In this document: positions 2,766 through 48,729 of the stretch, piece after piece
How the letters are laid out: each line of letters starts with the position of its first letter
Position numbering within the stretch: position 1 is the first letter of the stretch
DNA from: Candidatus Kapaibacterium sp.
GTDB taxonomy: Bacteria; Bacteroidota; Ignavibacteria; Kapaibacteriales; Kapaibacteriaceae
Length of the DNA: 64,000 nt
Assembly: GCA_018882585.1 (NCBI GenBank)
Contig: VFFB01000001.1
Span: forward strand, 1,793 to 65,792
Direction: 5' to 3'
Notes under the pieces: model-generated
Databases searched by the model: none
The model's input: only the letters and a program-made list of their open reading frames with translations
Told to the model about the DNA's origin: nothing
Made by a program: the position numbers and the translations under genes

Positions 2766-5700
2766 ATGGACCGACACTTGCTGCGGATCGACGCCCTGCG
2801 ACGGCAGACGATCCCGCGCATCGAGGCTGCACCGCGCGAGCTCCTTGATGTGGTAACACGCCCCGATCGCCACGTGGTGTCGCGTCGCCGTGCCCTTGGT
2901 ATCGCCGGAGCACTTTCGGTGACGGCTGCCCCGCTGGCCCGCGCCATGAGCAGCATCTTCCGACAAGACTGCACGATGATCCGCCGCGGCCGCGCCATCG
3001 TCTTCCTCGTTGCCAACGTCGAACGCTGGGTGATCGACCCGGACATGTTCTCGGGCGATCCACGCCTGGAGGTCGACCGGAGCGAAGACTCGATCGCAAT
3101 CTCCCTTCGCGGCGCCCTGTATCCGGGGACCAACCTTCCGGCCGATCTGACGTGTCGCATTGGTACTGCGGGACGTTGGACGGCGACGTTCGAACGAGAT
3201 GGTTTCACGTCGCCCCCTGTTGACATGGTGGAGTGGTTGCTTGACGCGGCCGTCGTTGCAATACCTGCGCGGCAGGCTGTAAGCATTCGCTGCACCGAGG
3301 CATTGCTGCATGTCACAACGAACGATGTGCGGTTCCGGCCGTCGTGGACGCTGCACCTTGCCGGCACCACAACGATGCAGACCGGACAACTGCGGCTTGC
3401 ATCAAACGGCATCGACGTGGCACTTCCTGCACGGCAGCGTTCCACGATGTTCTCGAAGAAACCGGCTAAACGCTCCGTCGTCCGTGTTGCCCGCGACGGC
3501 CACGCATGGACGATCCCGCTGTCGCTGCAGGGCCTGCCCGCGTGGAAGCTTGGCATTGCCGACGATGCCTTCGACAGCTTGAGCATCGAATGCAGCGACG
3601 ACGGACGCGCAGCGTTTGCCCTTGAAGGTAGCCGCGACGGTGGAGTAGCCTTTGTCCACCGACACGTTTCGTCGGCCATACGTCTGCGCAACGTCCGCTA
3701 TGCATGGTCACGCGGCGACAATGGTCTGCACGAGGCCCTGGTTGCCCGCTACAGCAACGCATCGGAGTGGTTGCACTTCGACGGCATCAACATCGAGATC
3801 GGTGACCGCTCCGAGATCCCGCCGCTCGAGATCACGAGCGTTAATGGCGAAGTCACCCGCATGAACATCGCTCCGGGCATGCTGCGCTACAGTGTTCCTG
3901 TCGATGGCGCCATCACCGAGCCTACGTCCATGCCCTCGGGCTCGCAGCTTGCGTTCATCACGGCTGCGGTTGCCACCAAGGCTCTGCCCAAAGCCCATTT
4001 CCACATGGCTGCCGTGCAGATCGATGCCCAGGCAGGCATCATCAAGCAGATCGAGACAACAAAGAAGCTGCCAACAGGTAAACCTCGCTCCGTCAATGTC
4101 CGCAAGAGTCTTGGCGTGCTAAAACCCGGTGCTGTAGCACTCGCGGGAAATCCTACCATCACCGTGATCCGTCCCGAAGACCTGATGGTCCTGACCTTCG
4201 AGTTCATGGGCATCACGCTGAACAAAGCCGCGGGCACCTTCACAGCCGGTGGTAACGCCAAGCTGATCGTGCATTTCCAGCCACAGCATATCGCCGAGCG
4301 GGCCTTCTTCACCACGCAGGAGAAGCCCAATACCGACGAGATCAGATCGCCGTCGAATCCGGCACAGGCAAAAAAGAATCTTCCGCAAGGGGCAACGGAC
4401 GAACCGTTGCTGGACCCGCCGATCGACGCGGTGATGGCCCACGGCTCGCGCCTGGTACTGCGCGTTCCTTCGGGATATACAGGCTTCCTTCGCGTGACGC
4501 CGCCGCCCGACGCCGATCCCTTGGTGCCGTCCAAGATGCTGCTGGATTGGTCTGCCTTCACGATGCACGTTTCGCCGTCGGCAAAGCCGCCTTCGACGGG
4601 ACTTGTCTTCGGCATGCTGTCGGGCGCTTTCACCACGAAGTACACGGCCTCGTTCGCCGACAAGGGTCTTAACACCAAGCCCGTACGCAGCGTCGGCACC
4701 AAGGGCGCAACCTTCACGCGTGGCGTCAGCAAGCGGTCGTACAAGGCCCCTTCCGTGACCCTGAATGTCGAGGGGGAACGGGCACCGCTCACGAATTACA
4801 TCAAGGCACAGATCGACACGCAGCCCGACATCATGGCTGCCGTTCCTTCGCCCTGGATGCAAGAGATCGTGGCTGCCGCCAACCAGAAGCCGCCGATCCG
4901 CGAACCGCTGGCAGACGAGACGGCCATTGAGTATCCGTACCGTCTGATCATGTCGCCCAACAAGTATGCCGGCTGGGCACATACACAGGCGCCGGCCTGG
5001 GGCAAGGACCTTGCCGAGAATGTCACGCGCCGTGTCGAACTGTGGCACACACGTCTTGGCGTCAAACACAGCGACGGTCGCGTGAGCGAAGAGGCCGCCT
5101 ACCTGCGGACGATGCGGGCCATCTGGACGCCCGATATCAACACGCAGCGAACGCTGGACGCCAAGTACATGGAGCGGCCGTTCCGTACGTCGCTCAATCG
5201 TCGTGACCGCTGGGAGCTGGTACGTCTGATGTCGGACTATGCCATGGCCACCAAGACGGCCCCCATGGAAGTACGCCGGTTTATGATGTCGGCGCTTGGC
5301 GCCTGGGCAGATATGACGGGTGTGTGGGATCCGCTGGGCGAAGATGGCCTTGATGTGGAACAGTGGATCCAGCGAGGTGCCCAGGGTCGGGACCACTTTG
5401 TACGCATTTGCTATAAGGGCTATCTGTTCCCCTTCGGACATCGGGCGACGCTTGTGAAGGAGACCGAGCGGAAGTTCCGGCGGACGCCGCGTGGCGATAT
5501 GGCTGCCTATCTGCTGCAGCGGCTGTATATCATCCTGCGGCAGCCCCTTCGGGAATTTCCGGCCGACGGCTTGCAAGGCCAGAAGTATCAGGGTCGCGAC
5601 TTCCCCTTCCGCAGCGTCGTTATCACGACCAAGACAACACCGAACCTGAACCTTCCGGTCAAGCTGCATCCAAGTCTCTCGCCCAACTCCTTCTGGCCGC

Positions 5701-7901
5701 AGTTCAGCACGTCGGCCGGCGGCACTCAGGACGTGCAGTGGGCATGCGTGGGAACAGACTGGGATGGCAACGAGACGCAGTTCTCGACGCCGCTTGCCTT
5801 TGTGGCAAATACAGATGCTACCAACGACGCAAACCTTGCCTCGTTTATCAACGGCGATTACCAGACCAAGGCCGACAACAAAGCTCGTCGAGCCGTTGCC
5901 ATGTCGGGTCAGCAGATCGCCTTTGCTCCGTCGGTCAAACGCGGCGACACGGCTCTGCCCGTGACGGTCTTGACGCTCAACGCACACTACAGCGATACGG
6001 TACCGGCAAACACCGTGCGGTTTTTTCCGCGCATGGAAAAGGCTGCGGCACGCATCGAAAAGGTCGACGAGCTGCTTGGCACACAACTGCCGCGTGACGT
6101 TTCGTTCGCATCGCAGTTTCTGGATTATGCCTTCGACGCCGGCAGCGAGGTCAAGAAGGCCGGTCAGGCCGTCAATACCGCCAACGTGCGCAACCCAAGT
6201 CAGATCTTCCTGAAGCTGCTTTCGACGGCCGACATGGACTTCGGCTCTAGCTCGGACAAGTCGGGCGGCCTGGCGGCTCCCAGCATGCAGATCGCAGGTC
6301 TGTCCCGACTCACGGGCCCCATGCCGGGCTCGATCAGCGGCGCCGTCAACTCGCTGGAAGACATCGCCAACAATGCTGCTGCCGCGGGCTCCTTCGATCC
6401 GATGGAGTACTTCGGCTCGCTCCTCAGCACCAAGATCCTTGGCGATATCACGCTGAAAGACGTGCTGAGTTTTGTGTCGGATATTCTGTCGAATGCCGAC
6501 AAGATGCCTGGTCTTGAGCGCAAGGACGAATTCGGCATGGCCGAGACGCAACAGGCGCTCAAGGACTTTACCAGTGAGGTCAAGACGCAGGTCCAGAGCT
6601 TCTCTAACGACGTCGCCCAGGACGTTGTGGACGCAAAGAAGGACTTGATGGACGAAGCTGACAAGGTCAAGGCCGAGATCGAGTCCTACATCAGCGCCGG
6701 CAAGCAGGCTGCCGAACATGAGATCAAGGCGTGGAAGAAAGCCATCGAGGATAAGCTTGGCGCACTCAAGTCAGAGGTCGACAAGGCCATCAAACCGCTG
6801 AAGGATGCGGGCAATGAGGCGTACAAGAAGTACGAGGAGGCCCAAGGCTACCTGAACTCCATCGCCAAGGGCGTCCAGCTTGTCTACGAGTGGCAAACCA
6901 AGATCACGTCCAGTCCGGGCAACATCCTGATGCCGATGCCGGGCAAGGATGCCGTTCTTGCGCTCAAGACGGAGATGGTCAAAAAGATCGACCTCTCTCC
7001 GCCTGTCGTCAAGGTCTTCGGCTCGCTCACCAACTTCGTCATCAACCTGATCGGCGACGGAGCAGCCAAGTTCCTTGTCATCAAGTTCAACTACATCAAG
7101 GTCTCGGCAATTGTCGGACAAAAGCCGAGCATCGACCCCAACATCGACGACGTCGAGTTTGCCGGCGCGTTGTCCTTCGTCAACAAACTCCGCGACCTGA
7201 TTCCCAAAGGGGGCTCGGGCAGCGCCGGCGGCGTTGGCTTCTCGTTCGAATTCGACGTCAAGCCGTCGGGCATCACCGCCGCGCTCACGATTGGTCTGCC
7301 CGCCGTAACCGTCGGCGTCTTCTCGCTGCAGAACATCTCGTTCCTGATGAAGGTGACCATTCCGTTCGACGGACGTCCCTTCGCCGCGTACTTCGCCTTC
7401 TGCACCAAGGACAATCCCTTCCGGCTTACGATCATGGTCTTTGGGGGCGGCGGTTTCTTCGGCATCGAGGTCACGCCGTCCGGCGTGCGCATGCTTGAAG
7501 CTGCCTTCGAGTTCGGCGGCAACTTCTCGTTCAACTGCGGCGTCGCCTCGGGCGGCGCCTCGGTCATGGCCGGCATCTACTATAAGCTGGAGACAAAGAA
7601 CATCGACGGCAAGGACGTGCAGCAGTCGGAACTCACCGGCTACTTCCGTCTGCAGGGCAACCTTAGCGTGCTGGGCCTGATCCGCGTCAACCTGCTGTTC
7701 GAGCTCAAACTAACCTGGTTGAGCACCGGCAAGGTCTTTGGCACGGCCACCGTCGAAGTCGAGATCGAAGTGCTGTTCCTGTCATTCAGCGTGGGCGTCA
7801 CCGTCGAGCGTCAGCTCAAGGGCAGCGACGGCGACCCGACGTTCAAGGACATGTTGCCGCAGCCGGCGCTGTGGCTTGAGTATTGCGACAGTTTTGCCTA
7901 A
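2766..7901 (+). CDS. Giant hypothetical protein (1711 aa) with no recognisable catalytic motif. Its C-terminus has a coiled-coil, apolipoprotein-like helical region followed by a Gly-rich amphipathic beta-strand module.
   Basis: Strong SD GGAGGA lies 4 nt before the ATG. The 5.1-kb frame is uninterrupted, with host-like codon usage and GC3 bias. An internal twin-arginine-like motif SRRRALGIAGALSVTAAPLARA sits about 40 aa from the N-terminus. The C-terminal approximately 470 aa split into two parts. First come heptad-like K/E/A-rich helices (KDLMDEADKVKAEIESYISAGKQAAEHEIKAWKKAIEDKLGALKSEVDKAIKPL). Then come alternating hydrophobic beta patterns (GFSFEFDV, FRLTIMVFGGGGFFGIEVTP, VEVEIEVLFLSFSVGVTVE). 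Confidence 0.7.
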   Translation: MDRHLLRIDALRRQTIPRIEAAPRELLDVVTRPDRHVVSRRRALGIAGALSVTAAPLARAMSSIFRQDCTMIRRGRAIVFLVANVERWVIDPDMFSGDPRLEVDRSEDSIAISLRGALYPGTNLPADLTCRIGTAGRWTATFERDGFTSPPVDMVEWLLDAAVVAIPARQAVSIRCTEALLHVTTNDVRFRPSWTLHLAGTTTMQTGQLRLASNGIDVALPARQRSTMFSKKPAKRSVVRVARDGHAWTIPLSLQGLPAWKLGIADDAFDSLSIECSDDGRAAFALEGSRDGGVAFVHRHVSSAIRLRNVRYAWSRGDNGLHEALVARYSNASEWLHFDGINIEIGDRSEIPPLEITSVNGEVTRMNIAPGMLRYSVPVDGAITEPTSMPSGSQLAFITAAVATKALPKAHFHMAAVQIDAQAGIIKQIETTKKLPTGKPRSVNVRKSLGVLKPGAVALAGNPTITVIRPEDLMVLTFEFMGITLNKAAGTFTAGGNAKLIVHFQPQHIAERAFFTTQEKPNTDEIRSPSNPAQAKKNLPQGATDEPLLDPPIDAVMAHGSRLVLRVPSGYTGFLRVTPPPDADPLVPSKMLLDWSAFTMHVSPSAKPPSTGLVFGMLSGAFTTKYTASFADKGLNTKPVRSVGTKGATFTRGVSKRSYKAPSVTLNVEGERAPLTNYIKAQIDTQPDIMAAVPSPWMQEIVAAANQKPPIREPLADETAIEYPYRLIMSPNKYAGWAHTQAPAWGKDLAENVTRRVELWHTRLGVKHSDGRVSEEAAYLRTMRAIWTPDINTQRTLDAKYMERPFRTSLNRRDRWELVRLMSDYAMATKTAPMEVRRFMMSALGAWADMTGVWDPLGEDGLDVEQWIQRGAQGRDHFVRICYKGYLFPFGHRATLVKETERKFRRTPRGDMAAYLLQRLYIILRQPLREFPADGLQGQKYQGRDFPFRSVVITTKTTPNLNLPVKLHPSLSPNSFWPQFSTSAGGTQDVQWACVGTDWDGNETQFSTPLAFVANTDATNDANLASFINGDYQTKADNKARRAVAMSGQQIAFAPSVKRGDTALPVTVLTLNAHYSDTVPANTVRFFPRMEKAAARIEKVDELLGTQLPRDVSFASQFLDYAFDAGSEVKKAGQAVNTANVRNPSQIFLKLLSTADMDFGSSSDKSGGLAAPSMQIAGLSRLTGPMPGSISGAVNSLEDIANNAAAAGSFDPMEYFGSLLSTKILGDITLKDVLSFVSDILSNADKMPGLERKDEFGMAETQQALKDFTSEVKTQVQSFSNDVAQDVVDAKKDLMDEADKVKAEIESYISAGKQAAEHEIKAWKKAIEDKLGALKSEVDKAIKPLKDAGNEAYKKYEEAQGYLNSIAKGVQLVYEWQTKITSSPGNILMPMPGKDAVLALKTEMVKKIDLSPPVVKVFGSLTNFVINLIGDGAAKFLVIKFNYIKVSAIVGQKPSIDPNIDDVEFAGALSFVNKLRDLIPKGGSGSAGGVGFSFEFDVKPSGITAALTIGLPAVTVGVFSLQNISFLMKVTIPFDGRPFAAYFAFCTKDNPFRLTIMVFGGGGFFGIEVTPSGVRMLEAAFEFGGNFSFNCGVASGGASVMAGIYYKLETKNIDGKDVQQSELTGYFRLQGNLSVLGLIRVNLLFELKLTWLSTGKVFGTATVEVEIEVLFLSFSVGVTVERQLKGSDGDPTFKDMLPQPALWLEYCDSFA

Positions 7902-7915
7902 GGACGGAGACCCCG

Positions 7916-30221: not shown

Positions 30222-31438
30222 TCAACCCGGATACCATCGGCGATCACGGCGCCCGCGGCGCGTCGCGCCGGATACACGGCTGCCAGTGTGGCCAGCAACA
30301 ACGCCGTCACGGCCGTCTCCAGCACATCCGCACCGTGCAGCTCCACGGGCAGGGCCGGCACCAGATAGCCGGCAGACATGTCGAAGGCGACCCATGAGAA
30401 TGCCTTCTGTCCAAGCACCAGGGCAACGCCGATAGCAGTACCGATGACGACGCTGACAGCTCCGATCATCAGTCCCTGTAACCGGAAGATGCGAGCAACA
30501 TCGGCATCCGTGACGCCAAGCGTCTTCAGGACGGCGATGTCCCGTCGCTTCTCGCTTACACCCAGCGTCAACGTCACAAGGATGTTGAATGCGGCCACGA
30601 CGATGATAAGCGCAAGGACAATGAACGAACCTACGCGCTCAAGCTGCATCGTGTCGAACAAGCCTTTGTTCAGGTCCTGCCATGTCAGCACCTGCACGGA
30701 ACCTCCAATGTCTTGCTGCAGCACCTTCGCCACGGCGACAGCTTCGAGGGGATGTGCAATGGTCATGTCAATGGCGTTCACATCGGCACGGCGCGACAGG
30801 CGGTGCACAAGTGCGTCCGACGTCATCACCATTGCATTGTCGATCTCGCGCATGCTGTTCGCCTGGAAGACGCCACGGACGATGGCACGGCGTCCCGACG
30901 GCGGCATGAGCGTCGTCAGTGCCTGCTCGATCATCTCGGGCGAGAGCACCATGACGGTATCGCCAATGAACGTCTGCAGTTTTTCGACAAGGCCGATACC
31001 GATGACCAGCCCCGGTGCCTCATCCGGCTGCGCCGGGTGAACAATGAATCGACCGGCGATCATGCGCGAAGCGACACCCTCTGGAACAGTCGCCGGCGGC
31101 AGCCCCTGGGCCTGTGCCACGGCCGTGATCCCGTCACGCTGCAACACTACGCGCGTCGTCGCCACGGGGATGGACGTACCGGCGCGACGCGACATCGCAA
31201 GGATGCGCGAGGTATCGTCCAGCACCGCCCCCTTTGACGGAACGATGCGCAGATGGGGTCCGAAACCGATCATGACGTCGTTGGCAACGGAGCGGAAACC
31301 GTTGAAGATCGACATCACGACGATCAGGGCGGCCGTGCCGATGGCAATGCCGATCATCGACAGCAGACCAATGATGGAGATGAAGTTCCAGCGTCGTGGC
31401 CGAAGGTATCGAAGAGCGATCCGAGACGAAGGTTTCAT
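30218..31438 (-). CDS. ABC transporter permease, FtsX/LolC-E family.
   Basis: N-terminal TM, a large periplasmic loop and a C-terminal FtsX-like 3-TM bundle (ALIIVVAAFNILVTLTLGVSEKRRDIAVLKTLG). Length 406 aa. Confidence 0.75.
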   Translation of the reverse strand: MKPSSRIALRYLRPRRWNFISIIGLLSMIGIAIGTAALIVVMSIFNGFRSVANDVMIGFGPHLRIVPSKGAVLDDTSRILAMSRRAGTSIPVATTRVVLQRDGITAVAQAQGLPPATVPEGVASRMIAGRFIVHPAQPDEAPGLVIGIGLVEKLQTFIGDTVMVLSPEMIEQALTTLMPPSGRRAIVRGVFQANSMREIDNAMVMTSDALVHRLSRRADVNAIDMTIAHPLEAVAVAKVLQQDIGGSVQVLTWQDLNKGLFDTMQLERVGSFIVLALIIVVAAFNILVTLTLGVSEKRRDIAVLKTLGVTDADVARIFRLQGLMIGAVSVVIGTAIGVALVLGQKAFSWVAFDMSAGYLVPALPVELHGADVLETAVTALLLATLAAVYPARRAAGAVIADGIRVD

Positions 31439-33576
31439 CGGCGGCGACGTGACGATTCAAGCAATGCATGCTGGACACGTACGACATCCTTGGAGGCGCG
31501 CACGCGTTGATACGTTCCATCGGCTGTAAGCATCCGTGCCTTCACGTTGTCATGCAGGTAGGCATCGAGAATGTCCTTGAGCTGCTTCTTCACGGCCTGG
31601 TCATAGACGGGGAACAGCAACTCGACCCGACGGTGCATGTTCCTTGTCATCCAGTCGGCACTCGAAATGAAAACTGCGTCGTCGCCGCCATTGCGGAAGC
31701 GGAAGATGCGGCTGTGCTCGAGGAATCTGTCCAAGACACTGCGTACGGTGATATTGTCGCTGACGCCTGCAATGCCGGGACGCAGCGTGCAGACGCCGCG
31801 TACGATGAGTTCGACCCTGACGCCGGCTTGTGATGCCTTGTAGAGTGCGCGGATGATATCGGGATCGATCAGGGCATTCATCTTGGCAACGATATGTCCC
31901 TTCGTTCCGGATCGCTGATGCTCGATCTCGCGCTCGATCAGGCCCAGAAGGTTTTCGCGAAGATTCACCGGCGCCACACCGATGTGTTGCCAGCCGCGAT
32001 GCTTTGAATAGCCGGTCAGCAGATTGAACAGGTGAACGAAGTCACGCTCGAATTCCTGACGGGCCGTGAAGATGCCGACGTCGGTATACAGTCGCGATGT
32101 CGAAAGGTTGTAGTTGCCTGTGGCCACGTGCGCATACGTCAGCACGTTGCGGCCCTCCTTGCGGATCACAAGGCAGACCTTGCAGTGGGTCTTAAGGCCT
32201 ACAAGTCCGTAGACGACGTGGACGCCGGCCTGTTCGAGAGCCCGGGCCCAGGCGATGTTCGTTTCCTCGTCGAATCGTGCTTTGAGTTCAACAAAGGCAG
32301 TAACATTCTTGCCATTCTCGGCGGCCTCGCGCAGTGCGTCGATCACGGGCGACTTACCGCCGGCGCGATACAGCGTGATCTTGATGGCCAGTACCTGAGG
32401 GTCGCGAGCGGCCGACTTCAGAAACGTTACCACCGAATTCGTGAACGAATCGAAGGGGTGGTGAACCAGGACGTCACCTTCCTTCAGCACGTCGAAGATG
32501 TTGGCGCCGTCCTGCGTCAGTTCCGTTGGCGTGCGCGATACCAGCGGCGGGTCCTTCAGACGGCGCTTGTCGAGTTGCATCAGAACCAGGAAGTCCTGCA
32601 GGTTCATCGGCACGTCTGTCTGATAGACGTCGGCCGTTTCAAGGTCGAGCGATCGTGCCAGGAACTGCGTCAGAAAGCGCGGCACGTCGGGACCGATCTC
32701 CAGTCGGACAGCATCGGTGCCCCAGCGTCGTTGGCGGATACCTTCGGCCACGGCCGTGATCAGGTCGCCCGCTTCGTCGTCGGCAATTTCGACGTCGGCA
32801 TCACGCGTCACGCGAAACACATGGGCTTCGCGGAAGTCCAGCCCCGGAAAGAGCACACCGGCATTGGCGCGGATCACGTCGTCGAGCAGGACGTAATGGT
32901 GTCCGCCGCTGCGCGGCAGACGCATCAGCCGTGGCAGTGCGGACGGCAGCTGCAGCACGGCGATCTTCGTCTCCTTCTGTCCGTCCACATGATCTGTCAG
33001 CACAAAGGCGATGTTGATGGATCGGTTCAACAGTCGCGGGAACGGATGGCCCGGGTCGAGCGCCAGCGGCGTTAGCACCGGCATGATGTTGTCGACAAAA
33101 TCCTGGTCGAACTCCTCGCGCTCCTCTGCCGTCAGGTCTTCAAGTCCATGGAAGTGTATCCCCTCTTTCCGCAGCGCCGGTATGAGGTCATGATGGAAGA
33201 TGCGGCTTTGCTCCATGTAAAGCGGCATCAGCCGGGAGCGGATCTCTTTCATCTGCTCGGCAGGCGTCATACCATCGGCCGACAACTCCGTGACGCCGGA
33301 GTAGATCTGCTCCTGCAGTCCGGCCACGCGGATCATGAAGAACTCATCGAGGTTCGTCCCGAAGATGGCCAGGAACTTCAGACGCTCCAGCAGTGGATGC
33401 GTCATGTCTGCCGCTTCTTCGATCACACGCCGGTTGAACTCAATCCATGACAGCTCGCGGTTGAAATAGAGCGACTCGTCGCGCAGATCAAGGGTAGCCT
33501 CGGGGCGCTTTTTTTTCCTCGATTCTTTGTCAGGATGTGATCCGGTGCTAGCTTTTGGCATAATAATCGGTTGCAC
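31435..33576 (-). CDS. ppk: Polyphosphate kinase 1.
   Basis: PPK1 N, head and two PLD-like C-terminal domains. Autophosphorylated-His region context. The 713-aa frame overlaps the downstream permease by 4 nt. Confidence 0.9.
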   Translation of the reverse strand: MQPIIMPKASTGSHPDKESRKKKRPEATLDLRDESLYFNRELSWIEFNRRVIEEAADMTHPLLERLKFLAIFGTNLDEFFMIRVAGLQEQIYSGVTELSADGMTPAEQMKEIRSRLMPLYMEQSRIFHHDLIPALRKEGIHFHGLEDLTAEEREEFDQDFVDNIMPVLTPLALDPGHPFPRLLNRSINIAFVLTDHVDGQKETKIAVLQLPSALPRLMRLPRSGGHHYVLLDDVIRANAGVLFPGLDFREAHVFRVTRDADVEIADDEAGDLITAVAEGIRQRRWGTDAVRLEIGPDVPRFLTQFLARSLDLETADVYQTDVPMNLQDFLVLMQLDKRRLKDPPLVSRTPTELTQDGANIFDVLKEGDVLVHHPFDSFTNSVVTFLKSAARDPQVLAIKITLYRAGGKSPVIDALREAAENGKNVTAFVELKARFDEETNIAWARALEQAGVHVVYGLVGLKTHCKVCLVIRKEGRNVLTYAHVATGNYNLSTSRLYTDVGIFTARQEFERDFVHLFNLLTGYSKHRGWQHIGVAPVNLRENLLGLIEREIEHQRSGTKGHIVAKMNALIDPDIIRALYKASQAGVRVELIVRGVCTLRPGIAGVSDNITVRSVLDRFLEHSRIFRFRNGGDDAVFISSADWMTRNMHRRVELLFPVYDQAVKKQLKDILDAYLHDNVKARMLTADGTYQRVRASKDVVRVQHALLESSRRRR

Positions 33577-33698
33577 GTTTCGTACAGGGAAGTTACGCAG
33601 TCACGATCGTGCTGTGTGTAACGCGTTCATAACGTCGCTGCACGACGAGTCAGACGAAGACTTGTTGGAGGCTTCAGATACATCCGGAAAGGCGATAC

Positions 33699-36482
33699 AT
33701 GAGAGTTCGCGCTGGCTTGACTGCACTGATGTTGATGTCAGCTGCGCTCTCCGTGGCCGCACAGAAACGCGAGGTTCGCGGCATTGTCATCGACAGTGCA
33801 ACCAGAACGCCACTTCCCGGGGCCAAGATTACGATCGGCCGTGTTGCCGACTCAACAGTGAGCGGAGCACTTTCCGATCGTCGGGGCCAGTTCGTTCTTC
33901 GTGGCGTGTCCGAAGGAATCAACGTCCTGCATGTATCCTACGTGGGATACCAGACGCGCGGCGATACCGTGAATATTCTGCGTTCCGGCCTGACGCTCGA
34001 CACGATACGTCTTGCTCAAGGCATGATCTCGACGGCCGACGTACTCGTTACCGGCAGAGCCGTCCGAGTGCTGCAACGCGGAGATACCACGGAATACAAT
34101 GCGAGTGCGTTCCGCGTGGATACCAACGCAAATGCCGACGCATTGGTGCGGCAGCTGCCCGGCGTGACCATGGCCGACGGCAAGGTACGCGCGCAGGGCG
34201 AACAGGTCGACCAGATCCTTGTGGACGGACAGCCATTCTTCGGCAACGATGTCACGGCCACCCTTGTCAACCTCCCCGCCTCGATCATCGATAAGGTCGA
34301 GATTTATGACACGAAGTCGGACGAGGCCAAGGAGACCGGCATCGCAGAGGAATCCACGACCAAGACGATGAACATCGTCACGCAAGAGGACAAACGAATG
34401 GGATACTTTGGTCGTGCCAGGACAGGCTATGGCGATGAGGCCAGATACGAGGCCTACGGCACGATCAGTCACTTCGACACGCTCATTCGTGCCACGATCC
34501 TGTCCATGTCGAACAACGTCAACGATCAAAGCTTTTCGTTCGAAGATGTGCTGAGCAGCCTTGCTACGGAGTCCGTTAGTGGGGGACACTACATCACAAC
34601 CGACGATAATGACGCGTTGAACGCATACTTTAAGCCCGACCGCCAAGGCATCATTCGCACCAACTCTCTTGGTGCCAACGTGTCGACTCGGTTTGGCAAG
34701 TCTTCGCAGGCATCCTTGAATTACGTCATGAGCGATGCACGCTCCGATGCCGCCTCGAGCACACTTCGCCAGTACTTCAATTCCGGAGCGTCCCTCCAGC
34801 TGTTTCGCCAGGTCGATACGTCAACGTCAACAAACCAGCGGCACCAGCTCATTGGAAACCTTCGGTATGACATTGACTCTTCGACGCGCTTCACGCTGCG
34901 GCCGAATGCATCATTTGACAATGCATCGTCCAATGCCATGCTGGAAGGACTTACCCGCATCGACGGCATGCCGCAAAACGCGACAGCATCATCTTCCTCG
35001 ACCGACATGCATTCGTCCGCACTGTCAACAGATGCAAGTCTCCTGCGACGTTTTCGCAATCGCCGTCGAAGCATGACGATATCGTTGCGCGCGTCAACAG
35101 CGGCAACCGATGGCACGAGCTCGCTGCAGGCAACAGGCATACGTGGTGGGCAGACGGACCGAACCGATACGACCGATCAGCGCGGCATTCAGGATGTTGC
35201 CACAACAACATGGGCGCCTACGATCTCGTACAATGAACCCTTGAGCGACAACATCATGCTGCGATTCTCGCTTGACGGCTCGTTCTCTTCGTCACGCTCG
35301 GATCGCCGAACGTCTACAGATCCAGATCGTAGCGGCAGCTATGCCTCTCTTGACACGCTGCTGTCGAATGTCTTTCAGCAACAGACCAGATCGCTTGCCT
35401 CAGCAACATCGTTCATCTGGAGTGACTCGGCAATACGATTCGCCACCGGCGTCCGCTATCAATCGCTCCAACTAGATGGTGAGTCGATCTTCCCTATATC
35501 GGTGCTCACAACAAGAACCTTCGAAAACGTGCTACCTGATGTAAGTCTGGCCTTCCTGGCACTCGATAACGCAAGCCTGAGATTTGATTACGAAGCGTCA
35601 ACCGTTACTCCTACCATCAAACAGATGCAGAATGTCCTGAACAACAGCAACCCTCTGCTGCTGTCGATCGGAACGCCTTCGCTGGAGCAGTCCCTGACGC
35701 ATCGACTATCGATGAACTACTCAACGGCTATCAGTTCCATCAATGGCTTCGCCTACCTGTTCGCTCGAACGGGATATACCAGCGACCCCATCAGCACCAG
35801 CATGATCATTGCCGGCAGGGACACCATTGCCGACGGAATCACCCTGGCACAAGGTGCGCAGCTGACGCGCCCAGTCAACCTCGACAAGGCGATCGATGCA
35901 AGTCTTGACGGATACTTCAGCTTCGATCTGGACTCGCTGCCCATCAGCGTAAACCTCAACTCTAGCCTCAGATTCGACCAGACCCCCAGCCTGATCAATG
36001 GCAGCAGCAATCGAACGTCAACCATGGCGATCTCCGGCGGTGCCAGCCTGTATTACCGCCTCGACGAACGATTCAATGCCTCGGCAACATTCAACGTCGA
36101 CCACAGCACAGTACGCAACACGTTACAGCAGGACCTCAACACGGTCTTCACCAACGTGACGGTCACTGCCCAAGTGGACTGGACGTTCTGGGAAGGACTC
36201 GTGCTGCGGGCCGATGTTAGCAACCGTCGCAACAGCGGCTTCAGTTCGGGCTTCGGCCAGAACATTGCCCTGTTGAATGTCACACTGGCAAAGAAGCTAT
36301 TCAACAATGATCGGGGCGAGCTGGCCATCTATGTCAGGGATGCCCTGAATCAGAATCAGGCCGTCGACCGCATCGTGCAACCGGCATTTACTGAAGACCA
36401 GCGCTTCATGCAGCTCCAGCGCGTCGCCATGGTAACGTTTACATACAAGTTTCGATCCTTCGGTAAGACGTTGTTCGACTGA
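33699..36482 (+). CDS. Outer-membrane beta-barrel protein: carboxypeptidase-regulatory-like domain, TonB-dependent-receptor Plug, then barrel. First of two paralogs.
   Basis: Signal peptide MRVRAGLTALMLMSAALSVAAQ. Then RGIVIDSATRTPLPGAKITI (CarbopepD_reg). Then a Plug-like region ending ...LPGVTMADGKVRAQGEQVDQILVDGQPFFGND. A long beta-rich C-terminus ends in aromatic-rich strands. Confidence 0.8.
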   Translation: MRVRAGLTALMLMSAALSVAAQKREVRGIVIDSATRTPLPGAKITIGRVADSTVSGALSDRRGQFVLRGVSEGINVLHVSYVGYQTRGDTVNILRSGLTLDTIRLAQGMISTADVLVTGRAVRVLQRGDTTEYNASAFRVDTNANADALVRQLPGVTMADGKVRAQGEQVDQILVDGQPFFGNDVTATLVNLPASIIDKVEIYDTKSDEAKETGIAEESTTKTMNIVTQEDKRMGYFGRARTGYGDEARYEAYGTISHFDTLIRATILSMSNNVNDQSFSFEDVLSSLATESVSGGHYITTDDNDALNAYFKPDRQGIIRTNSLGANVSTRFGKSSQASLNYVMSDARSDAASSTLRQYFNSGASLQLFRQVDTSTSTNQRHQLIGNLRYDIDSSTRFTLRPNASFDNASSNAMLEGLTRIDGMPQNATASSSSTDMHSSALSTDASLLRRFRNRRRSMTISLRASTAATDGTSSLQATGIRGGQTDRTDTTDQRGIQDVATTTWAPTISYNEPLSDNIMLRFSLDGSFSSSRSDRRTSTDPDRSGSYASLDTLLSNVFQQQTRSLASATSFIWSDSAIRFATGVRYQSLQLDGESIFPISVLTTRTFENVLPDVSLAFLALDNASLRFDYEASTVTPTIKQMQNVLNNSNPLLLSIGTPSLEQSLTHRLSMNYSTAISSINGFAYLFARTGYTSDPISTSMIIAGRDTIADGITLAQGAQLTRPVNLDKAIDASLDGYFSFDLDSLPISVNLNSSLRFDQTPSLINGSSNRTSTMAISGGASLYYRLDERFNASATFNVDHSTVRNTLQQDLNTVFTNVTVTAQVDWTFWEGLVLRADVSNRRNSGFSSGFGQNIALLNVTLAKKLFNNDRGELAIYVRDALNQNQAVDRIVQPAFTEDQRFMQLQRVAMVTFTYKFRSFGKTLFD

Positions 36483-36602
36483 ACCTTTTCGCCTATTCGC
36501 CGGTTTTGTACCGTCGGCACGTCGATCCGTAGGTTCGTACGTGAAATGTCGTAGCAATACGTCATGGCCCACCGCACCTATCTGCACATTCCCTTCGGCA
36601 TC

Positions 36603-39485
36603 ATGCACTCCCGTTTCCTGCTCGCCCTGGTCGTCCTGGCCGGCCTAACCACGTCTGTGTTCGCACAATCCTTCAGCGCAACCGGCACCGTAGTCGACAG
36701 TGCGGCCGGTACGCCATTGAACGGCGCGCGCGTAGCATTCACACGACTTCAGGACTCCGTCATGAAAGGGGCAGTGACGGACCGTCAAGGCACGTTCACC
36801 GTCGAGGGACTCGACCGCGGCCGCTACGGCGTCCGCATCTCGTTCGTAGGCTATGCCCCCTTCGAGCGAACAGTGACGATCACAAATGGCACACTACGGA
36901 TGGGGCGCATCCAGCTTGTTGCCGGCGGCGTACAGGCCGAGGACGTTGTGGTGACCGAACGCGTGATCCCCATGCTCCAGAAGGGCGATACGTCCGAGTT
37001 CAATGCCAATGCCTACAAGGTGAACAAGGATGCCAATGCCGACGACCTTGTGCAGAAAATGCCGGGCGTTACCGTCGTGGACGGCCGCGTACAGGCCCAG
37101 GGCGAGAGCGTGCAGCGCGTACTTGTCGACGGACGTCCGTTCTTCGGTAACGACCCGAACGCTGCGCTGCGTAACCTGCCGGCCGAGATCGTCGATAAGG
37201 TCCAGATCTACGATGCCGGAAGCGACCAGCAGCGATTCACAGGTTTCGGCGATGGGAATACGACTAAGACGATGAACATCATGACCAGGATGGGCATGCG
37301 CAATGGACAGTTTGGTCGCTTTACCGCCGGCTATGGCGCCGACGACAGATACAAGGCTTCCGGCACCTACAACCTGTTCGACAACACGCAGCGAATCACC
37401 ATTCTGGCTCAATCAAACAACACGAACGAACAAAACTTCTCGATCGAAGATCTCTTCGGCGGCATGATGGGCGGCGGCAGCGGCGGCGGTGGATTCATGC
37501 GTCGCATGTCGGGCATGATGGGCGCCATGCGCAATCCCACTGGCATGATGGGCCGCTGGCGCGGTGGTGGCGGCGGCATGAGCGACTTCCTTGTCGACCA
37601 GCGCAACGGCGTTACGCTTACGCATGCAGCCGGCCTGAACTATGCCGATAAATGGGGGTCGAACATCGACGTATCAGCCAGCTACTTCGTCAACTACAGC
37701 GACAACTCGGCGACGCAGAATCTGCTGCGCCAGTTCGTGATCCCAACGCTGCAAGACCAGACATACTCACAGGACGACCAAACGACCTCGCAGAACACGA
37801 ACCATCGTTTGAACCTGCGCGCCGAGGTCGCCCTCGACACAAACACGTCGTTCCTGCTAAGTCCTCGCCTTACGCTGCAGCAGAACGACGGACTGACGTC
37901 GTTCCGTGGGAATACGCTGCTGTTGACCGACACGCTTAATCGGACGACGAACAGCACGACGACCGGCCTGACGGGCATCAACGCATCGAACGACCTGCTG
38001 TTCCGCCATCGGTTCGCGACGTTTGGACGTACCTTCTCCGTCAACATCAACACGCAGTACAACGACAACAACGGCACAAATACGCTGCTTGCCACCAACG
38101 ACTACGTTGGCCAGGGTGGCTTTATCGATACCGTCGACCAGCAATCCCGGCTTATCAAAGATGGCTATACCATTGCCCCCACGGTGACCTATACCGAACC
38201 ACTGTGGACGAACACGGGCCTGTCTTTGTCCTACAATGCGTCGTACAATGTGAGCACGTCGGACCGTCGGACCTTCACACCTGACGAGCCCTCGGCTCTG
38301 TTCGTCAACCTTGACACAACGCTGTCGAATACCTTTGCCACGACGTATTTCACACAGTCTGTCGCGCCTGCGTTTCAGTGGCAGGACGGAGAATGGCGCG
38401 CCAATGCCGGCGTTGCCGTGCAGAGGGCCGAGCTCTCGGGTGACCGTACCTTCCCGTTCAGCGGTGCCGTCCAACGCACCTTCACGAACATCCTTCCGAA
38501 TGCATCCGTCTCGATTCCCGTTACCACCGACGCATCGCTTAGGTTTAACTACACAACGCGGACGAATGCACCGTCGGTCGACCAGATGCAAAACGTGCTC
38601 AACAACACCAATCCCTTGCAGTTGTCCATCGGCGATCCGAATCTTTCACAGGACCTTTCGCACAACCTTTCGGCGCGATACGCTTCGTCGATCCCCCACT
38701 CTGCGTCAAGCTTCTTCGCCGTCGTCTCCGGCAGTGTCACGCAGGACTACATCGGCAACAGCACGGTGATCGCCGGACGCGACACCATCGTCGATGGCAT
38801 CAACCTTGGACGCGGCGCACAGCTCAGCAAACCCGTCAATATGGACGGTTTCGCCAGTGTGCGGTTCTTCTCCACGTACTCTACACCGATCGATCTGATC
38901 AAGTCGAACGTCAACGTCTTTGCGTCGTATAACCTGACGCGCACGCCGGGCATGGTAAACGGCGTCGAGAACATCGCCCTTGCTCCGGTCTACACGGGCG
39001 GCGTTGTCATCAGCAGCAACGTGAGCGAGTTCCTGGACTTCACGGTGTCCACCAACATCAGCGCAAACCAAGTGCGGAACAGCGTCCGCAGCGACCTGAA
39101 CTCCGACTTTCTGTCTGCGTTCTCGCGCTTCAAGTGGTCATGGCAGACGTGGGGCGGCATCGTCCTTGCCGGCGACGTCAGCCATCAGCTCAACAAGGGC
39201 TATACGGAAGGGTTCGACCAGAGCATCTGGCTTGTGAATGTCTCCGTGGCTAAGAAGTTCCTGCAGAACGACAGGGCCGAAGTTCGCCTGTCGGTGAACG
39301 ACGCCTTGAACCAGAACAACATGATCAACCGGAACATCACCGACGCCTACATCGAAGACACGCAGCAGAACATCCTGCGCCGCGTGATTCTACTCACATT
39401 CTCGTACTCGCTGCGCAACTTCGGCACGGGCACCAGTACGGCACCGAGCATGTTTGGCGGACCTCGGGACGGACGTCGCGACTAA
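36603..39485 (+). CDS. Paralogous outer-membrane beta-barrel protein (CarbopepD_reg, Plug, barrel) with a Met/Gly-rich low-complexity insert.
   Basis: ATG 36603 gives the signal peptide MHSRFLLALVVLAGLTTSVFAQ; the ORF track starts at 36564. Same architecture as the upstream paralog (LPGVTVVDGRVQAQGESVQRVLVDGRPFFGND). A unique insert reads FGGMMGGGSGGGGFMRRMSGMMGAMRNPTGMMGRWRGGGGGMSDF. Confidence 0.8.
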   Translation: MHSRFLLALVVLAGLTTSVFAQSFSATGTVVDSAAGTPLNGARVAFTRLQDSVMKGAVTDRQGTFTVEGLDRGRYGVRISFVGYAPFERTVTITNGTLRMGRIQLVAGGVQAEDVVVTERVIPMLQKGDTSEFNANAYKVNKDANADDLVQKMPGVTVVDGRVQAQGESVQRVLVDGRPFFGNDPNAALRNLPAEIVDKVQIYDAGSDQQRFTGFGDGNTTKTMNIMTRMGMRNGQFGRFTAGYGADDRYKASGTYNLFDNTQRITILAQSNNTNEQNFSIEDLFGGMMGGGSGGGGFMRRMSGMMGAMRNPTGMMGRWRGGGGGMSDFLVDQRNGVTLTHAAGLNYADKWGSNIDVSASYFVNYSDNSATQNLLRQFVIPTLQDQTYSQDDQTTSQNTNHRLNLRAEVALDTNTSFLLSPRLTLQQNDGLTSFRGNTLLLTDTLNRTTNSTTTGLTGINASNDLLFRHRFATFGRTFSVNINTQYNDNNGTNTLLATNDYVGQGGFIDTVDQQSRLIKDGYTIAPTVTYTEPLWTNTGLSLSYNASYNVSTSDRRTFTPDEPSALFVNLDTTLSNTFATTYFTQSVAPAFQWQDGEWRANAGVAVQRAELSGDRTFPFSGAVQRTFTNILPNASVSIPVTTDASLRFNYTTRTNAPSVDQMQNVLNNTNPLQLSIGDPNLSQDLSHNLSARYASSIPHSASSFFAVVSGSVTQDYIGNSTVIAGRDTIVDGINLGRGAQLSKPVNMDGFASVRFFSTYSTPIDLIKSNVNVFASYNLTRTPGMVNGVENIALAPVYTGGVVISSNVSEFLDFTVSTNISANQVRNSVRSDLNSDFLSAFSRFKWSWQTWGGIVLAGDVSHQLNKGYTEGFDQSIWLVNVSVAKKFLQNDRAEVRLSVNDALNQNNMINRNITDAYIEDTQQNILRRVILLTFSYSLRNFGTGTSTAPSMFGGPRDGRRD

Positions 39486-41050
39486 GGCGCAGCTCCGCGA
39501 GCCACGACGGTAGCTACGGCGCTCACGACGCGCTCGCTGGTGGCGTCCAACGCCGTGAACACGGCAACGTAGGGTCCGCGAGGCAACTCCATGCCGGCAT
39601 CATCAAGGCCGTCCCACGTGATGCTTCCTTCCGAGCCGACGATGACGTTGTCGAGCAGCGTCCGCACAATGGCTCCGTCCGTCGTGGCCACCTGCAGGAA
39701 TGCCGCCGCATGTCGGAACGGATGTCGGAATCGGATCGCATAGGGCCAGGCAGAGCCTACGTCGATCTGCCCCCGCCGGAATGGCGGCAGATCGATGGCA
39801 ACGCTGTTGCGTCTGCCCGGAGTGCCGCCTGCAAGGTCACCACTCGACGTCCATGATGCCCGATCTGCACCCACAAGACTTGGCTCGAGCTTTTCGAGGG
39901 CGACACCGCGCGTGTCGGCAAGTTCCGAGACGTGACGCGCAGGGTCGACCCGGGCAAGATCGACGGCGAATCCCGAAGGGTTCAGCAGCGTCACATCCTC
40001 GCCCCCTGCATCAATATTGAAGGAGCGTTTGACAAGGGCGACATTGGCGCGTGCGGTGTCATGCATCATCCGGCGTACGATGGTGTCTGTGGCGACCACG
40101 CCGTATCCGCCCGGAGGCAGCATGACATGTCCGTCGGCACGCACCGTATCCAGAGATTGATCGACCAGCATCCAACCATCGATATCGATTGTGTCGGCCG
40201 TGCCATTGTATACTTCGGCGTAGTCGCACTGTCCGGAACGCGGGGCAAACATGACCTCGGTGATCGACACCAGCGACGCTGGCGGAGGAATGTCAACAGC
40301 AAAATCGATAGTGTCGTTGGCCGATCTGTCATCACCCCGCTGCAGTGTGGCCTTGCAGACCACTACACGCGCCTGTGGCAGTAGGTCGAGCGGTATACTC
40401 CATGTCCACGCCTCGTCGACCATCAATTCGGGTACGGTCGTGAACATCGACGTGCCGTTGGCGATCAGCTGAAGGCGTCGCGGACGTGATGCGATCGTAC
40501 CGGCCTGCTGCACGATGACGTCGATTCGCGGCACTGGCCCGGACGGACGTATCTCGGCCACGCGCAGATCGTGCCGCATCCGCATGCGGGCATTGACGAA
40601 GCCGCAGGTTGCGCTGTCGCGAGCTACGCTCGCGCCCCACGTTCCAAGATCGTCCAACTCTATCGACCTGCCCTTGACAACGACGCGATAGGATATCGAA
40701 TCGACCAGAGTGCTGTCGGCCTTGCGAAGCACAACGACATCCGATGTGTTGTTCAGCGATGGCAACGGGCACTCGATGATCGCAGCATCGGCCACAACGC
40801 GCTGCTCGCGCAGTGCCTCTGCATCCCTTGTGACAACGACGTATGATCCCGCCGTCAGGACGTGGGCCGGCAGCTTGACGCACGTCCGAGCGTCGCAGAC
40901 GTGCCAGCCCTCCAGCTGCACAGCAACCTCACTGACGTTGACGATCTCCACCCACTCCGGCTCTCCGGCAGGGGGCGTTGCATGCACTTCGTTGATACGA
41001 ACCTGGGCGAGCGCTGCCGTTGCTGACAACAGCATAAGGATTGGCCACAT
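39482..41050 (-). CDS. Secreted protein with two lamin-tail domains (LTD) and a T9SS-type C-terminal sorting domain.
   Basis: ATG 41050 is preceded by GGAGGA. Signal peptide MWPILMLLSATAALAQ. Two LTD signatures: INEVHATPPAGEPEWVEIVN and ITEVMFAPRSGQCDYAEVYN. The C-terminus, AIVRTLLDNVIVGSEGSITWDGLDDAGMELPRGPYVAVF, matches the T9SS/FlgD-Ig-like CTD pattern. Confidence 0.7.
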   Translation of the reverse strand: MWPILMLLSATAALAQVRINEVHATPPAGEPEWVEIVNVSEVAVQLEGWHVCDARTCVKLPAHVLTAGSYVVVTRDAEALREQRVVADAAIIECPLPSLNNTSDVVVLRKADSTLVDSISYRVVVKGRSIELDDLGTWGASVARDSATCGFVNARMRMRHDLRVAEIRPSGPVPRIDVIVQQAGTIASRPRRLQLIANGTSMFTTVPELMVDEAWTWSIPLDLLPQARVVVCKATLQRGDDRSANDTIDFAVDIPPPASLVSITEVMFAPRSGQCDYAEVYNGTADTIDIDGWMLVDQSLDTVRADGHVMLPPGGYGVVATDTIVRRMMHDTARANVALVKRSFNIDAGGEDVTLLNPSGFAVDLARVDPARHVSELADTRGVALEKLEPSLVGADRASWTSSGDLAGGTPGRRNSVAIDLPPFRRGQIDVGSAWPYAIRFRHPFRHAAAFLQVATTDGAIVRTLLDNVIVGSEGSITWDGLDDAGMELPRGPYVAVFTALDATSERVVSAVATVVARGAAP

Positions 41051-41115
41051 GACTCCTCCGTTGTCATCATGTGCCAGCAGCACCTGTTTGTGTGACGCTT
41101 GACTGCGTCAAGCCG

Positions 41116-41636: not shown

Positions 41637-48729
<7,093 letters not shown>

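Follow-up and report, generated by a model that had tools for sequence, protein, structure and literature searches.

A disordered glycine-rich loop in one of two tandem TonB-dependent-type barrels of Kapabacteria is a family trait

Introduction

Two adjacent genes of Kapabacteria, called A and B here, encode proteins of very similar build, and only B carries a short segment that is rich in glycine and methionine. They lie in a window of 64 kb, the whole stretch of DNA that was analysed. The locus raises the question whether this segment is a metal-binding acquisition of B, as a sequence-only reading had proposed by analogy with copper receptors, or a property that B shares with its relatives. 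The explanation favoured here, with somewhat better than even confidence, is that B is an ordinary member of its family, that the loop is a disordered Gly/Arg trait of that family, that A is a derived duplicate, and that B has no dedicated Cu(I) site.

Architecture of the gene pair

The two proteins align from end to end in BLASTP with 38% identity (355 of 928 positions identical). For the Pfam families CarboxypepD_reg/CarbopepD_reg_2 and PF14905 (OMP_b-brl_3), both exceed the curated thresholds by a wide margin: PF14905 scores 92.1 bits in A and 90.0 bits in B against a cutoff of 27, and PF13715 scores 43.8 and 56.7 bits against a cutoff of 32.2. The Pfam Plug family gives a weak match in B only, below threshold (E 0.003), and a plug inside the barrel is visible in the AF2 models of both proteins (pLDDT 83, pTM 0.72-0.74). 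The identity, the Pfam matches and the modelled plugs bear out the earlier description of A and B as tandem paralogues of the CarbopepD_reg-Plug-barrel type. TonB-dependent transporters, including Cir, PfeA and HasR, are Foldseek matches with a probability of 1.0. The model of B superposes poorly on every solved 22-strand transporter, and DSSP suggests more than 22 strand elements in the models of A and B.

The motifs that precede the plugs (Table 1) are assigned as TonB boxes, on their sequence and their place in a disordered linker. A family profile aligns that of B to DEVVVTG, which follows the N-terminal domain of the SusC homologue BT1762, and residues 123-130 of B have a pLDDT below 50 in the AF2 model. 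When solved structures were searched with a single sequence, only chance matches were returned; the family profile matched the N-terminal domain and the TonB box, with the barrel and the plug lacking a detectable match. A and B differ from SusC/RagA systems (BT1762, PDB 5t3r) in this respect, in their apparent strand number, in having no adjoining gene for a SusD/RagB-like lipoprotein, and in the NCBIfam search, which gave zero matches and no SusC/RagA signature. Translation of B probably begins at Met14 (36603), ahead of the signal peptide, as the 959-aa orthologue P0002 indicates. Since the short A-B spacer holds no terminator-like hairpin, sigma-70-like promoter or inverted repeat, A and B may be co-transcribed; the spacer upstream of A is equally free of inverted repeats, terminators and sigma-70-like promoters, as judged with a tool that does not include the promoter types of the FCB group.

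Table 1. Features of the A/B locus, in window coordinates
Feature	Position	Strand	Extent	Remarks
Paralogue A	33699-36482	+	927 aa ORF	Signal peptide, N-terminal domain, TonB box, plug, PF14905 barrel
A carboxypeptidase-regulatory-like N-terminal domain	33771-34013	+		
A TonB-box-like motif	34035-34055	+	aa 113-119	ADVLVTG
A plug	34068-34382	+	residues 124-228	AF2 model
A PF14905 barrel	34401-36464	+		
A loop-2 segment	34548-34646	+	aa 284-316	VLSSLATESVSGGHYITTDDNDALNAYFKPDRQ; 3 Gly, no Met, net charge -3
A-B spacer	36483-36563		81 bp	
Paralogue B	36564-39485	+	973 aa ORF	Signal peptide, N-terminal domain, TonB box, plug, barrel
B N-terminal domain	36672-36917	+		
B TonB box	36939-36959	+	aa 126-132	EDVVVTE; linker between N-terminal domain and plug
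B plug	36972-37286	+	residues 137-241	AF2 model
B barrel	37302-39425	+		Followed by 19-aa C-terminal tail after beta-signal ...SLRNF
B N-terminal loop anchor	37416-37454	+		NNTNEQNFSIEDL; invariant N285, N286, Q290, F292, D296
B Gly/Met-rich segment	37455-37589	+	aa 298-342, 45 aa	18 Gly, 10 Met, 5 Arg, 0 His, 0 Cys
B C-terminal loop anchor	37584-37610	+		DFLVDQRNG; ends at invariant G349

The glycine/methionine-rich segment of B

Against the methionines of the segment stand 15 in the other 928 residues of B, which is the background level of 1.6%. The loop contains three MM, three MxxM and two MxxxM spacings. At the nucleotide level, the window has exactly three copies of GGCATGATGGGC, which start at 37461, 37512 and 37542; shuffles predict 0.01 occurrences. 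Given the peptide of B, the probability of an exact 12-mer repeat is about 0.07; the repeat follows from the three GMMG of the peptide together with the 65% usage of GGC for glycine. A recent duplication of DNA was considered as the source of the three copies and was rejected: the sole finding of TRF is a (GGC)n tract of 6.7 copies at 37470-37489, and orthologues encode the same peptide by synonymous variants, which argues against a repeat at the DNA level. The earlier claim of a 45-aa Met/Gly insert found only in B stands for the peptide and for the three copies, but not for a pure insertion. Since a different, acidic segment of 33-35 aa occupies the equivalent site in A, the segment of B is a replacement, and the net difference in length at the loop is about 19 aa. 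The predicted sharp difference between the paralogues at this position is real, and extends to an inverted net charge, which is +5 in B.

In the AF2 models, the loop has low confidence in both proteins, with pLDDT below 50 for residues 293-337 of B and residues 278-314 of A, and that of B is predicted to be disordered. The loop of B links barrel strand 3 (aa 276-285) to strand 4 (aa 350-364). All the long inter-strand connections of B (64, 15, 28 and 16 aa) run from an odd to an even strand, and the even-to-odd connections are all of 7 aa or less. Based on this pattern of long loops and short turns and on the canonical rule that the plug enters the barrel from the periplasmic side, the segment would be extracellular loop 2. 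The model therefore answers the question of placement that the earlier reading had posed in favour of a predicted extracellular loop instead of a periplasmic turn, because the segment sits on the side with all the long connections.

The loop across the family

B is 100% identical to the NCBI entry 'TonB-dependent receptor [Candidatus Kapabacteria bacterium]' and 41-50% identical to homologues from Bacteroidota, Ignavibacteria and Chlorobi over 94-99% of its length. Hundreds of homologues are collinear with it at 41-87% identity and 94-99% coverage, and PF14905 as a whole comprises 16,684 cluster representatives at E <=0.001. A glycine-rich window at aa 260-330 is present in all 120 of the best homologues. 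In alignment A1, the interval from D296 to G349 is found in all 76 B-type sequences, where it is 38-70 aa long and contains 12-31 Gly and 1-8 Arg, and the anchor positions given in Table 1 are columns that are invariant across 78 sequences. When homologues are clustered at 50% identity, the 151 cluster representatives have a median interval of 46 aa with 17 Gly, 4 Arg and 2 Met, and 124 of them have at least 12 Gly. GTDB genomes show a matching loop pattern. The segment had been taken for a novelty of B; this survey shows that it is the norm of the family and that A is the copy which lost the loop. The Bacteroidota barrels with PF14905 and CarbopepD_reg_2, annotated as 'TonB-dependent receptor' or 'outer membrane beta-barrel protein', have the glycine-rich loop and its anchors in common with B, and B differs from them in nothing essential, its 10 Met placing it at the Met-rich end of the range. 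A differs from them in having no glycine-rich loop and in evolving much faster.

The methionine content varies widely from loop to loop. The number of Met per loop ranges from 0 to 12 overall and from 0 to 11 inside a single 42%-identity cluster; 69 of the 151 representatives have at most one, while 39 have five or more. The count correlates weakly with that of the nearest neighbour (rho 0.31). Compositional bias was rejected as the source of the methionines, since loop Met shows a rho of 0.03 with the GARP/FYMINK ratio and of 0.24 with Met in the rest of the protein. All 14 loops with at least eight Met contain no His, no Cys, at most one Asp/Glu and 2-6 Arg. Nearly all the listed loops carry Arg, and they contain few Asp/Glu and hardly any Lys. 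A [M/F]-R-R-[M/F]-G core recurs across the clade of 48-100% identity, and some relatives have clear internal tandem peptide repeats, such as P0306 with three copies of GG.GGMMFG.

Within its own lineage, the loop of B is under purifying selection. Its codons differ from those of orthologue L005 at 15 synonymous and no nonsynonymous sites, and from those of L001 at 14 synonymous and three nonsynonymous sites. At 73% identity, change is quicker in the loop than in the remainder of the protein, with 17 nonsynonymous and 10 synonymous differences against 234 and 293 elsewhere, and the length of the glycine runs differs even among close orthologues. Conservation of the Met spacing, which the earlier reading had made its test, therefore holds among orthologues of at least 82% identity, where the Met positions are kept, but is eroded at 73% and lost over much of the family. 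About a quarter of the family has a marked excess of Met, and Met is conserved locally, so the residue may have some role of its own, for instance in metal binding, in redox buffering or in the binding of hydrophobic peptides.

Origin of the duplicate A

A falls within the list of B homologues at 38% identity and has only four close orthologues (P0122-P0125). Its clade is the sister of the Kapabacteria B clade in a neighbour-joining (NJ) tree (bootstrap 91/100), and A sits on a long branch. At the syntenic site, A is present in L005 and L006 and absent in L001 and L013. By tree and synteny, A is a Kapabacteria-specific, fast-evolving tandem duplicate, with B as the conservative copy. The sequence-only reading had B diverging towards metal uptake; the tree reverses that polarity, since it is A that is derived and fast. 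The exchange of a cationic, glycine-rich loop for an acidic one suggests that the ligand preference of A has changed relative to that of B.

Alternative explanations

The neighbourhood of the pair offers one candidate for the ligand. The ppk1 gene adjoins A divergently at a distance of 122 bp, B faces a convergent gene whose product has two lamin-tail domains, and the arrangement is conserved in Kapabacteria. The family might accordingly take up anionic compounds of phosphorus, for instance polyphosphate, nucleotides or fragments of extracellular DNA, with an RGG-like Arg/Gly loop that captures phosphate, and the genes would form a phosphorus neighbourhood. Apart from Flavobacterium johnsoniae Fjoh_0545, a literature search on PF14905/OMP_b-brl_3 and glycine-rich TonB-dependent receptors returned no characterised member of the family. 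Fjoh_0545 (pf07715+pf13715+pf14905), which is likened to B by Pfam architecture alone, belongs to the phoBR operon and responds to phosphate depletion with an induction of about 2^8-fold, and phosphate-induced extracellular nucleases of the same organism carry the lamin-tail domain pf00932 (PMC8115612). The cationic character of the loop, with its family-wide median of four Arg and the scarcity of Lys and Asp/Glu in the listed loops, is consistent with such ligands. However, the synteny with ppk1 and the lamin-tail gene is limited to close relatives of at least 73% identity, and the lamin-tail protein lacks nuclease and phosphatase domains. Genes of the pho and pst types and genes for phosphatases are missing beside the orthologues in Chlorobi, Cytophagia, Saprospiria and the 50%-identity clade, as they are from the commonest neighbours in the set of 80 GTDB loci. 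Given also the sheer size of PF14905, this explanation is unlikely.

The GGM-repeat tails of GroEL and Met-rich surfaces bind unfolded chains, and a flexible Gly/Met/Arg loop might similarly bind extended peptides without specificity, in a family that takes up peptides or peptidoglycan fragments. Different clades do place different peptide- or murein-active genes beside the gene. Three contigs of the 50%-identity clade have SBP_bac_5 and NlpC/P60 genes directly upstream of it in the same orientation, Peptidase_M14 is directly downstream in one Chlorobi genome, a LysM+SLT lytic transglycosylase is downstream at 11-13 of 72 GTDB loci, and the window itself has a secreted M12 protease about 2 kb away. 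The LysM/SLT cases, however, seem to come mostly from one genus, Hymenobacter, as judged by gene sizes, and so represent few independent events. Many loci have unrelated neighbours, there is no RagB/SusD-type surface lipoprotein as a partner, and no observation connects the loop itself with the binding of peptides. Uptake of peptides or murein fragments is accordingly an improbable account of the family.

It is very unlikely that the loop is an extracellular segment for the capture of Cu(I)/Ag(I), like the methionine track of OprC or the Mets motifs of Ctr1, with B as a copper importer and A as a general transporter. In its favour, the 10 Met fall within 39 residues at MxxM and MxxxM spacings, the loop is predicted to be extracellular and flexible, purifying selection maintains its Met positions among close orthologues, Met-rich loops recur in the family, and Met-only three-coordinate Ag/Cu(I) sites exist on the surface of OprC (PMC8610252). 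The copper ligands of OprC are Cys143, Met147, His323 and Met325, and its 11-12 Met form a structured track on a 22-strand barrel (PMC8610252). B has the plug-in-barrel fold and, as far as the orientation of its model can be trusted, methionines on the extracellular side in common with OprC/NosA (PDB 6fok, 6z8y), but its methionines are in one disordered, Arg-rich loop. Since B, like A, has no cysteine at all, it cannot form the CxxxM-HxM site of OprC/NosA, the high-affinity site that a Met track would feed. Outside the loop the methionines are at background, and neither sequence nor structure searches find a greater similarity to OprC than to other transporters.

The Met-rich Cu(I)/Ag(I) motifs of CopB/PcoB, PcoA/CopA, CusF/CusB and Ctr1 show clustered MxxM, MxM or MxxxM spacings, and periplasmic Met-rich copper segments typically also carry His, Asp or Cys. 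The B loop has such clustering (MM, MxxM and MxxxM), but the Met ligands are not conserved across orthologues at large, and the accompanying residues are missing from the Met-rich loops. Loops of the same length and position occur with at most one Met, the counts flip within clades, and the Met-rich loops have cationic Arg in place of His, Cys and, with few exceptions, Asp/Glu. Genes for copper homeostasis or cuproenzymes are absent from the 64-kb window (Pfam scans of 30 further ORFs), from the listed genes of nine orthologue contigs, and from the 25 commonest flanking families in a nearest-neighbour census of 80 GTDB loci, only about six of which have a loop with at least five Met. The suggestion of copper-responsive regulator sites upstream of 36564 found no support, as no operator-like dyad lies upstream of either gene. 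Nothing beyond composition thus links the loop to copper, and the copper reading should stay out of the annotation.

Neutral drift of a low-complexity spacer, in which slippage or expansion of Gly/Met units is free as long as flexibility and length are maintained, would fit the variable glycine runs, the (GGC)n tract, the internal repeats of relatives such as P0306, the rapid turnover between clades and the faster change of the loop at 73% identity, but it is highly improbable, since the codon pattern relative to L005, the recurrent core and the bias towards Arg over Lys and acidic residues argue for a constraint on more than length.

Possible role of the loop

According to the favoured explanation of an ordinary family member with a Gly/Arg loop, B is the Kapabacteria orthologue within a very large, uncharacterised family of TonB-dependent-type barrels from Bacteroidota, Ignavibacteria, Chlorobi and their relatives. 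In its members, a signal peptide and a SusC-like N-terminal extension precede the TonB box, the plug and the PF14905 barrel, and loop 2 is almost always an intrinsically disordered, glycine-rich and cationic stretch of 40-60 residues between the anchors NNxNxQxF..D and DFxV...G. The loop combines glycine spacers and Arg with a varying share of residues that are flexible or hydrophobic (Met, Phe, Trp, Pro). Its Met-rich form is one recurrent flavour, which is kept by purifying selection within a lineage and exchanged freely for Gly/Arg-only forms between lineages. Such a loop could serve as a lid, flexible and tethered, above the mouth of the barrel or as an arm for capture, and may help to occlude a barrel that looks wider than the classical 22-strand transporters. 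Anionic or polar ligands would be preferred on account of the positive charge of the loop. The "insert" of B is best understood as the ancestral state of the family, and A as a tandem duplicate that arose within Kapabacteria, evolved much faster and exchanged the cationic loop for an acidic, non-glycine one. Thousands of genomes of the FCB group encode a well-conserved TonB-type barrel with an invariantly placed, disordered Gly/Arg(/Met) loop on its presumed surface side. The Kapabacteria pair and the recurrent Met-rich variants provide handles on the function of this loop.

The C-terminus of GroEL is a (GGM)4M repeat, and RGG-type regions are disordered stretches of Gly and Arg. The B loop is similar to both in its glycine spacers, its Met/Arg 'stickers' and its predicted disorder, and also in combining rapid turnover of sequence with a conserved composition. 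The resemblance is compositional only, and the location differs, the B loop being a predicted surface loop of an outer-membrane barrel. Glycine-rich tails are also found at the periplasmic C-terminus of some relatives, which is hard to square with the idea that such segments act at the surface only.

A Gly-rich loop common to the family

The tandem genes A and B encode paralogous TonB-type outer-membrane barrels that align end to end with 38% identity. Both match CarboxypepD_reg/CarbopepD_reg_2 and PF14905 (OMP_b-brl_3) in Pfam far above threshold, in agreement with the shared architecture that the sequence-only reading had recognised; Pfam Plug is matched weakly, by B only. The Met/Gly-rich segment of B, which holds 10 of its 25 Met residues, had been described as a 45-residue insert found in B alone. 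The segment is real but is not a clean insertion, as it replaces a different, acidic segment of 33-35 residues in A, which makes B about 19 residues longer there.

Features of the A/B locus, in window coordinates
Feature	Position	Strand	Remarks
ppk1	31435-33576	-	divergent from A, 122 bp between start codons
ORF A	33699-36482	+	927 aa
ORF B	36564-39485	+	973 aa
Met/Gly-rich peptide of B	37455-37589	+	residues 298-342
Secreted protein, two lamin-tail domains	39482-41083	-	convergent with B, ends overlap by 4 bp

Nor is the segment a feature of B alone, since a Gly-rich window lies at the same place in 120 of its 120 best homologues. Full-length relatives of B number in the thousands, in Bacteroidota, Ignavibacteria and Chlorobi, and an exhaustive search returns 16,684 cluster representatives at E ≤0.001 and 2,831 at ≤1e-30. 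In all 76 B-type sequences of the homologue alignment, the interval between D296 and G349, both invariant, spans 38-70 residues, of which 12-31 are Gly and 1-8 are Arg. In the 151 representatives of clusters at 50% identity, its median length is 46 residues, with medians of 17 for Gly, 4 for Arg and 2 for Met, and 124 have at least 12 Gly. The GTDB search gave more than 590 hits, and 80 GTDB species genomes give the same picture, with loops that are mostly Gly/Arg-only. As judged from these alignments, the Gly-rich segment is common to the family, and B is an unremarkable member of a known family that is still uncharacterised; no paper characterising it was found in the literature. The significance of the locus is modest and lies mainly in this family-level loop and in a possibly non-canonical barrel.

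Predicted structure and position of the loop

The AF2 models of B (pLDDT 83.2, pTM 0.74) and A (pLDDT 83.3, pTM 0.72) agree in their layout: the signal peptide is followed by a transthyretin-like N-terminal domain, then by a disordered linker, a plug and a long barrel. The linker contains a TonB-box-like sequence, EDVVVTE in B and ADVLVTG in A, and SusC BT1762 aligns to the family profile over this domain and the TonB box. By Foldseek, the fold is that of TonB-dependent transporters (probability 1.0). In the model of B, the Met/Gly segment (residues 293-337) has pLDDT <50 and is situated between barrel strands 3 (276-285) and 4 (350-364). The last plug strand, TTKTMNIMT, which corresponds to the classical ...INIITK motif, precedes barrel strand 1, so that this strand is expected to begin on the periplasmic side. 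Since, in addition, the long connections of the barrel (64, 15, 28 and 16 residues) are all odd-to-even, while the even-to-odd ones are all of 7 residues or fewer, the segment mapped onto the model is predicted to be extracellular loop 2. The most likely explanation is that this loop would act, throughout the family, as a flexible lid or capture arm of cationic character, with the Met-rich form as one flavour, and that A is a duplicate whose loop chemistry has changed. The net charge of loop 2 is +5 in B versus -3 in A.

An NCBI protein of a Candidatus Kapabacteria MAG matches B with 100% identity. The ORF start of B adds 13 residues (MAHRTYLHIPFGI, window 36564-36602) ahead of a typical signal peptide. 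Because that peptide begins at Met14 and P0002, an orthologue 87% identical to B, is 14 residues shorter than the ORF, the true start is probably Met14 (36603). Outer-membrane barrels usually terminate at the β-signal; at the C-terminus of B (window 39426-39482), 19 disordered residues extend beyond the β-signal-like ...SLRNF. Some relatives (P0132, P0134 and P0142) have Gly/Arg-rich C-terminal tails of 40-50 residues with a loop-2-like composition.

Met content and selection on the loop

Across orthologues the Gly-rich loop is kept, but its Met content is not: 69 of the 151 representatives have at most one Met in the loop interval and 39 have at least five, and counts range from 0 to 11 inside a single 42%-identity cluster. 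Loop Met correlates weakly with that of the nearest neighbour (rho 0.31) and shows no correlation with overall amino-acid bias. On these counts the Met content is evolutionarily labile. At shorter distances, the codon differences in the loop between B and its Kapabacteria orthologues are 15 synonymous and none nonsynonymous (L005) and 14 synonymous and three nonsynonymous (L001), and a core like [M/F]-R-R-[M/F]-G recurs throughout the 48-100% identity clade. In the L013 orthologue (73% identity), the loop changes faster than the remainder of the protein. The mostly synonymous differences and the recurrent core indicate that the local loop sequence is maintained by selection, with the composition turning over at greater evolutionary distances.

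The three copies of GGCATGATGGGC noticed earlier are indeed present in the segment of B and nowhere else in the window. These identical 12-mers, with a probability of about 0.07 given the peptide, follow from a threefold GMMG peptide and 65% GGC usage; orthologues encode the same loop peptide with synonymous variants. In the homologue P0306, three nearly identical peptide units in a row (GGRGGMMFG, GGRGGMMFG, GGSGGMMFG) form loop 2, which shows that tandem expansion of a short unit can give rise to a Met-rich loop.

The copper interpretation

The sequence-only reading had likened the Met-rich loop to copper-importing receptors of the OprC/NosA type and suggested a turn toward metal uptake. OprC binds copper at a CxxxM-HxM site (Cys143, Met147, His323, Met325) and its 22-strand barrel carries a structured track of 11-12 Met (PMC8610252). 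In contrast to OprC, whose site includes Cys143, A and B are without any cysteine, and sequence and family-profile searches give no similarity of B to OprC. The 14 loops with at least eight Met all lack His and Cys; each has 2-6 Arg and no more than one acidic residue. Copper-related genes are absent from the 64-kb window, from the nine orthologue contigs inspected and from the commonest gene neighbours of 80 GTDB loci. Neither the spacer ahead of A nor the one ahead of B has an inverted repeat, a terminator or a sigma-70-type promoter. What is left in favour of the copper reading is the composition of the loop, and this reading is very improbable.

History of the pair

Close orthologues of A number only four, and none of them has the Gly-rich loop. 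The A clade, which sits on a long branch of the NJ tree, groups with the B clade of Kapabacteria as its sister (bootstrap 91/100). The gene order is FtsX, ppk1, [A], B and the lamin-tail-domain protein, with A present in the window, L005 and L006 and absent from L001 and L013. On this evidence, B is the conservative copy and A a lineage-specific, fast-evolving duplicate. The presence/absence polymorphism between close Kapabacteria lineages is seen at L001 3490-3716 versus window 33577-36563, and at L013 6144-6170; two contigs of one ENA sample (ERZ27292242) between them show both states.

Gene neighbours

The single lead on function is Fjoh_0545 of F. johnsoniae, a protein of identical Pfam architecture whose gene belongs to the phoBR operon and responds to phosphate depletion with strong induction (PMC8115612). 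The ppk1 and lamin-tail neighbours of A/B echo components of that organism's phosphate-starvation regulon (PMC8115612). Their synteny is kept in Kapabacteria relatives, and their association with a B-type gene is confined to Kapabacteria. Elsewhere, SBP_bac_5 and NlpC/P60 genes lie upstream on the same strand (L010 5297-10829, L011 1921-7534, L012 4235-9775), a Chlorobi genome has Peptidase_M14 downstream (L003 10001-14406), and a LysM+SLT lytic transglycosylase lies downstream at 11-13 of 72 GTDB loci, apparently mostly Hymenobacter (L015-L017, L025, L034, L036, L052, L059, L061). These neighbours, which differ from clade to clade but act on peptides or murein, give a weak hint of a link to peptide or muropeptide handling.

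Other features of the window

Three + strand ORFs, 531-2003 (490 aa), 2766-7901 (1711 aa) and 7883-12145 (1420 aa), have no Pfam match at 1e-4 and apparently form one operon. An M12 (reprolysin-like) protease of 1653 aa (41637-46598, - strand) carries Laminin_G_3 and CARDB domains together with a C-terminal sorting domain for type IX secretion, and a T9SS plug-domain protein is encoded at 16275-17573 (+). From this sorting domain and the plug-domain protein, the source organism appears to use type IX secretion.
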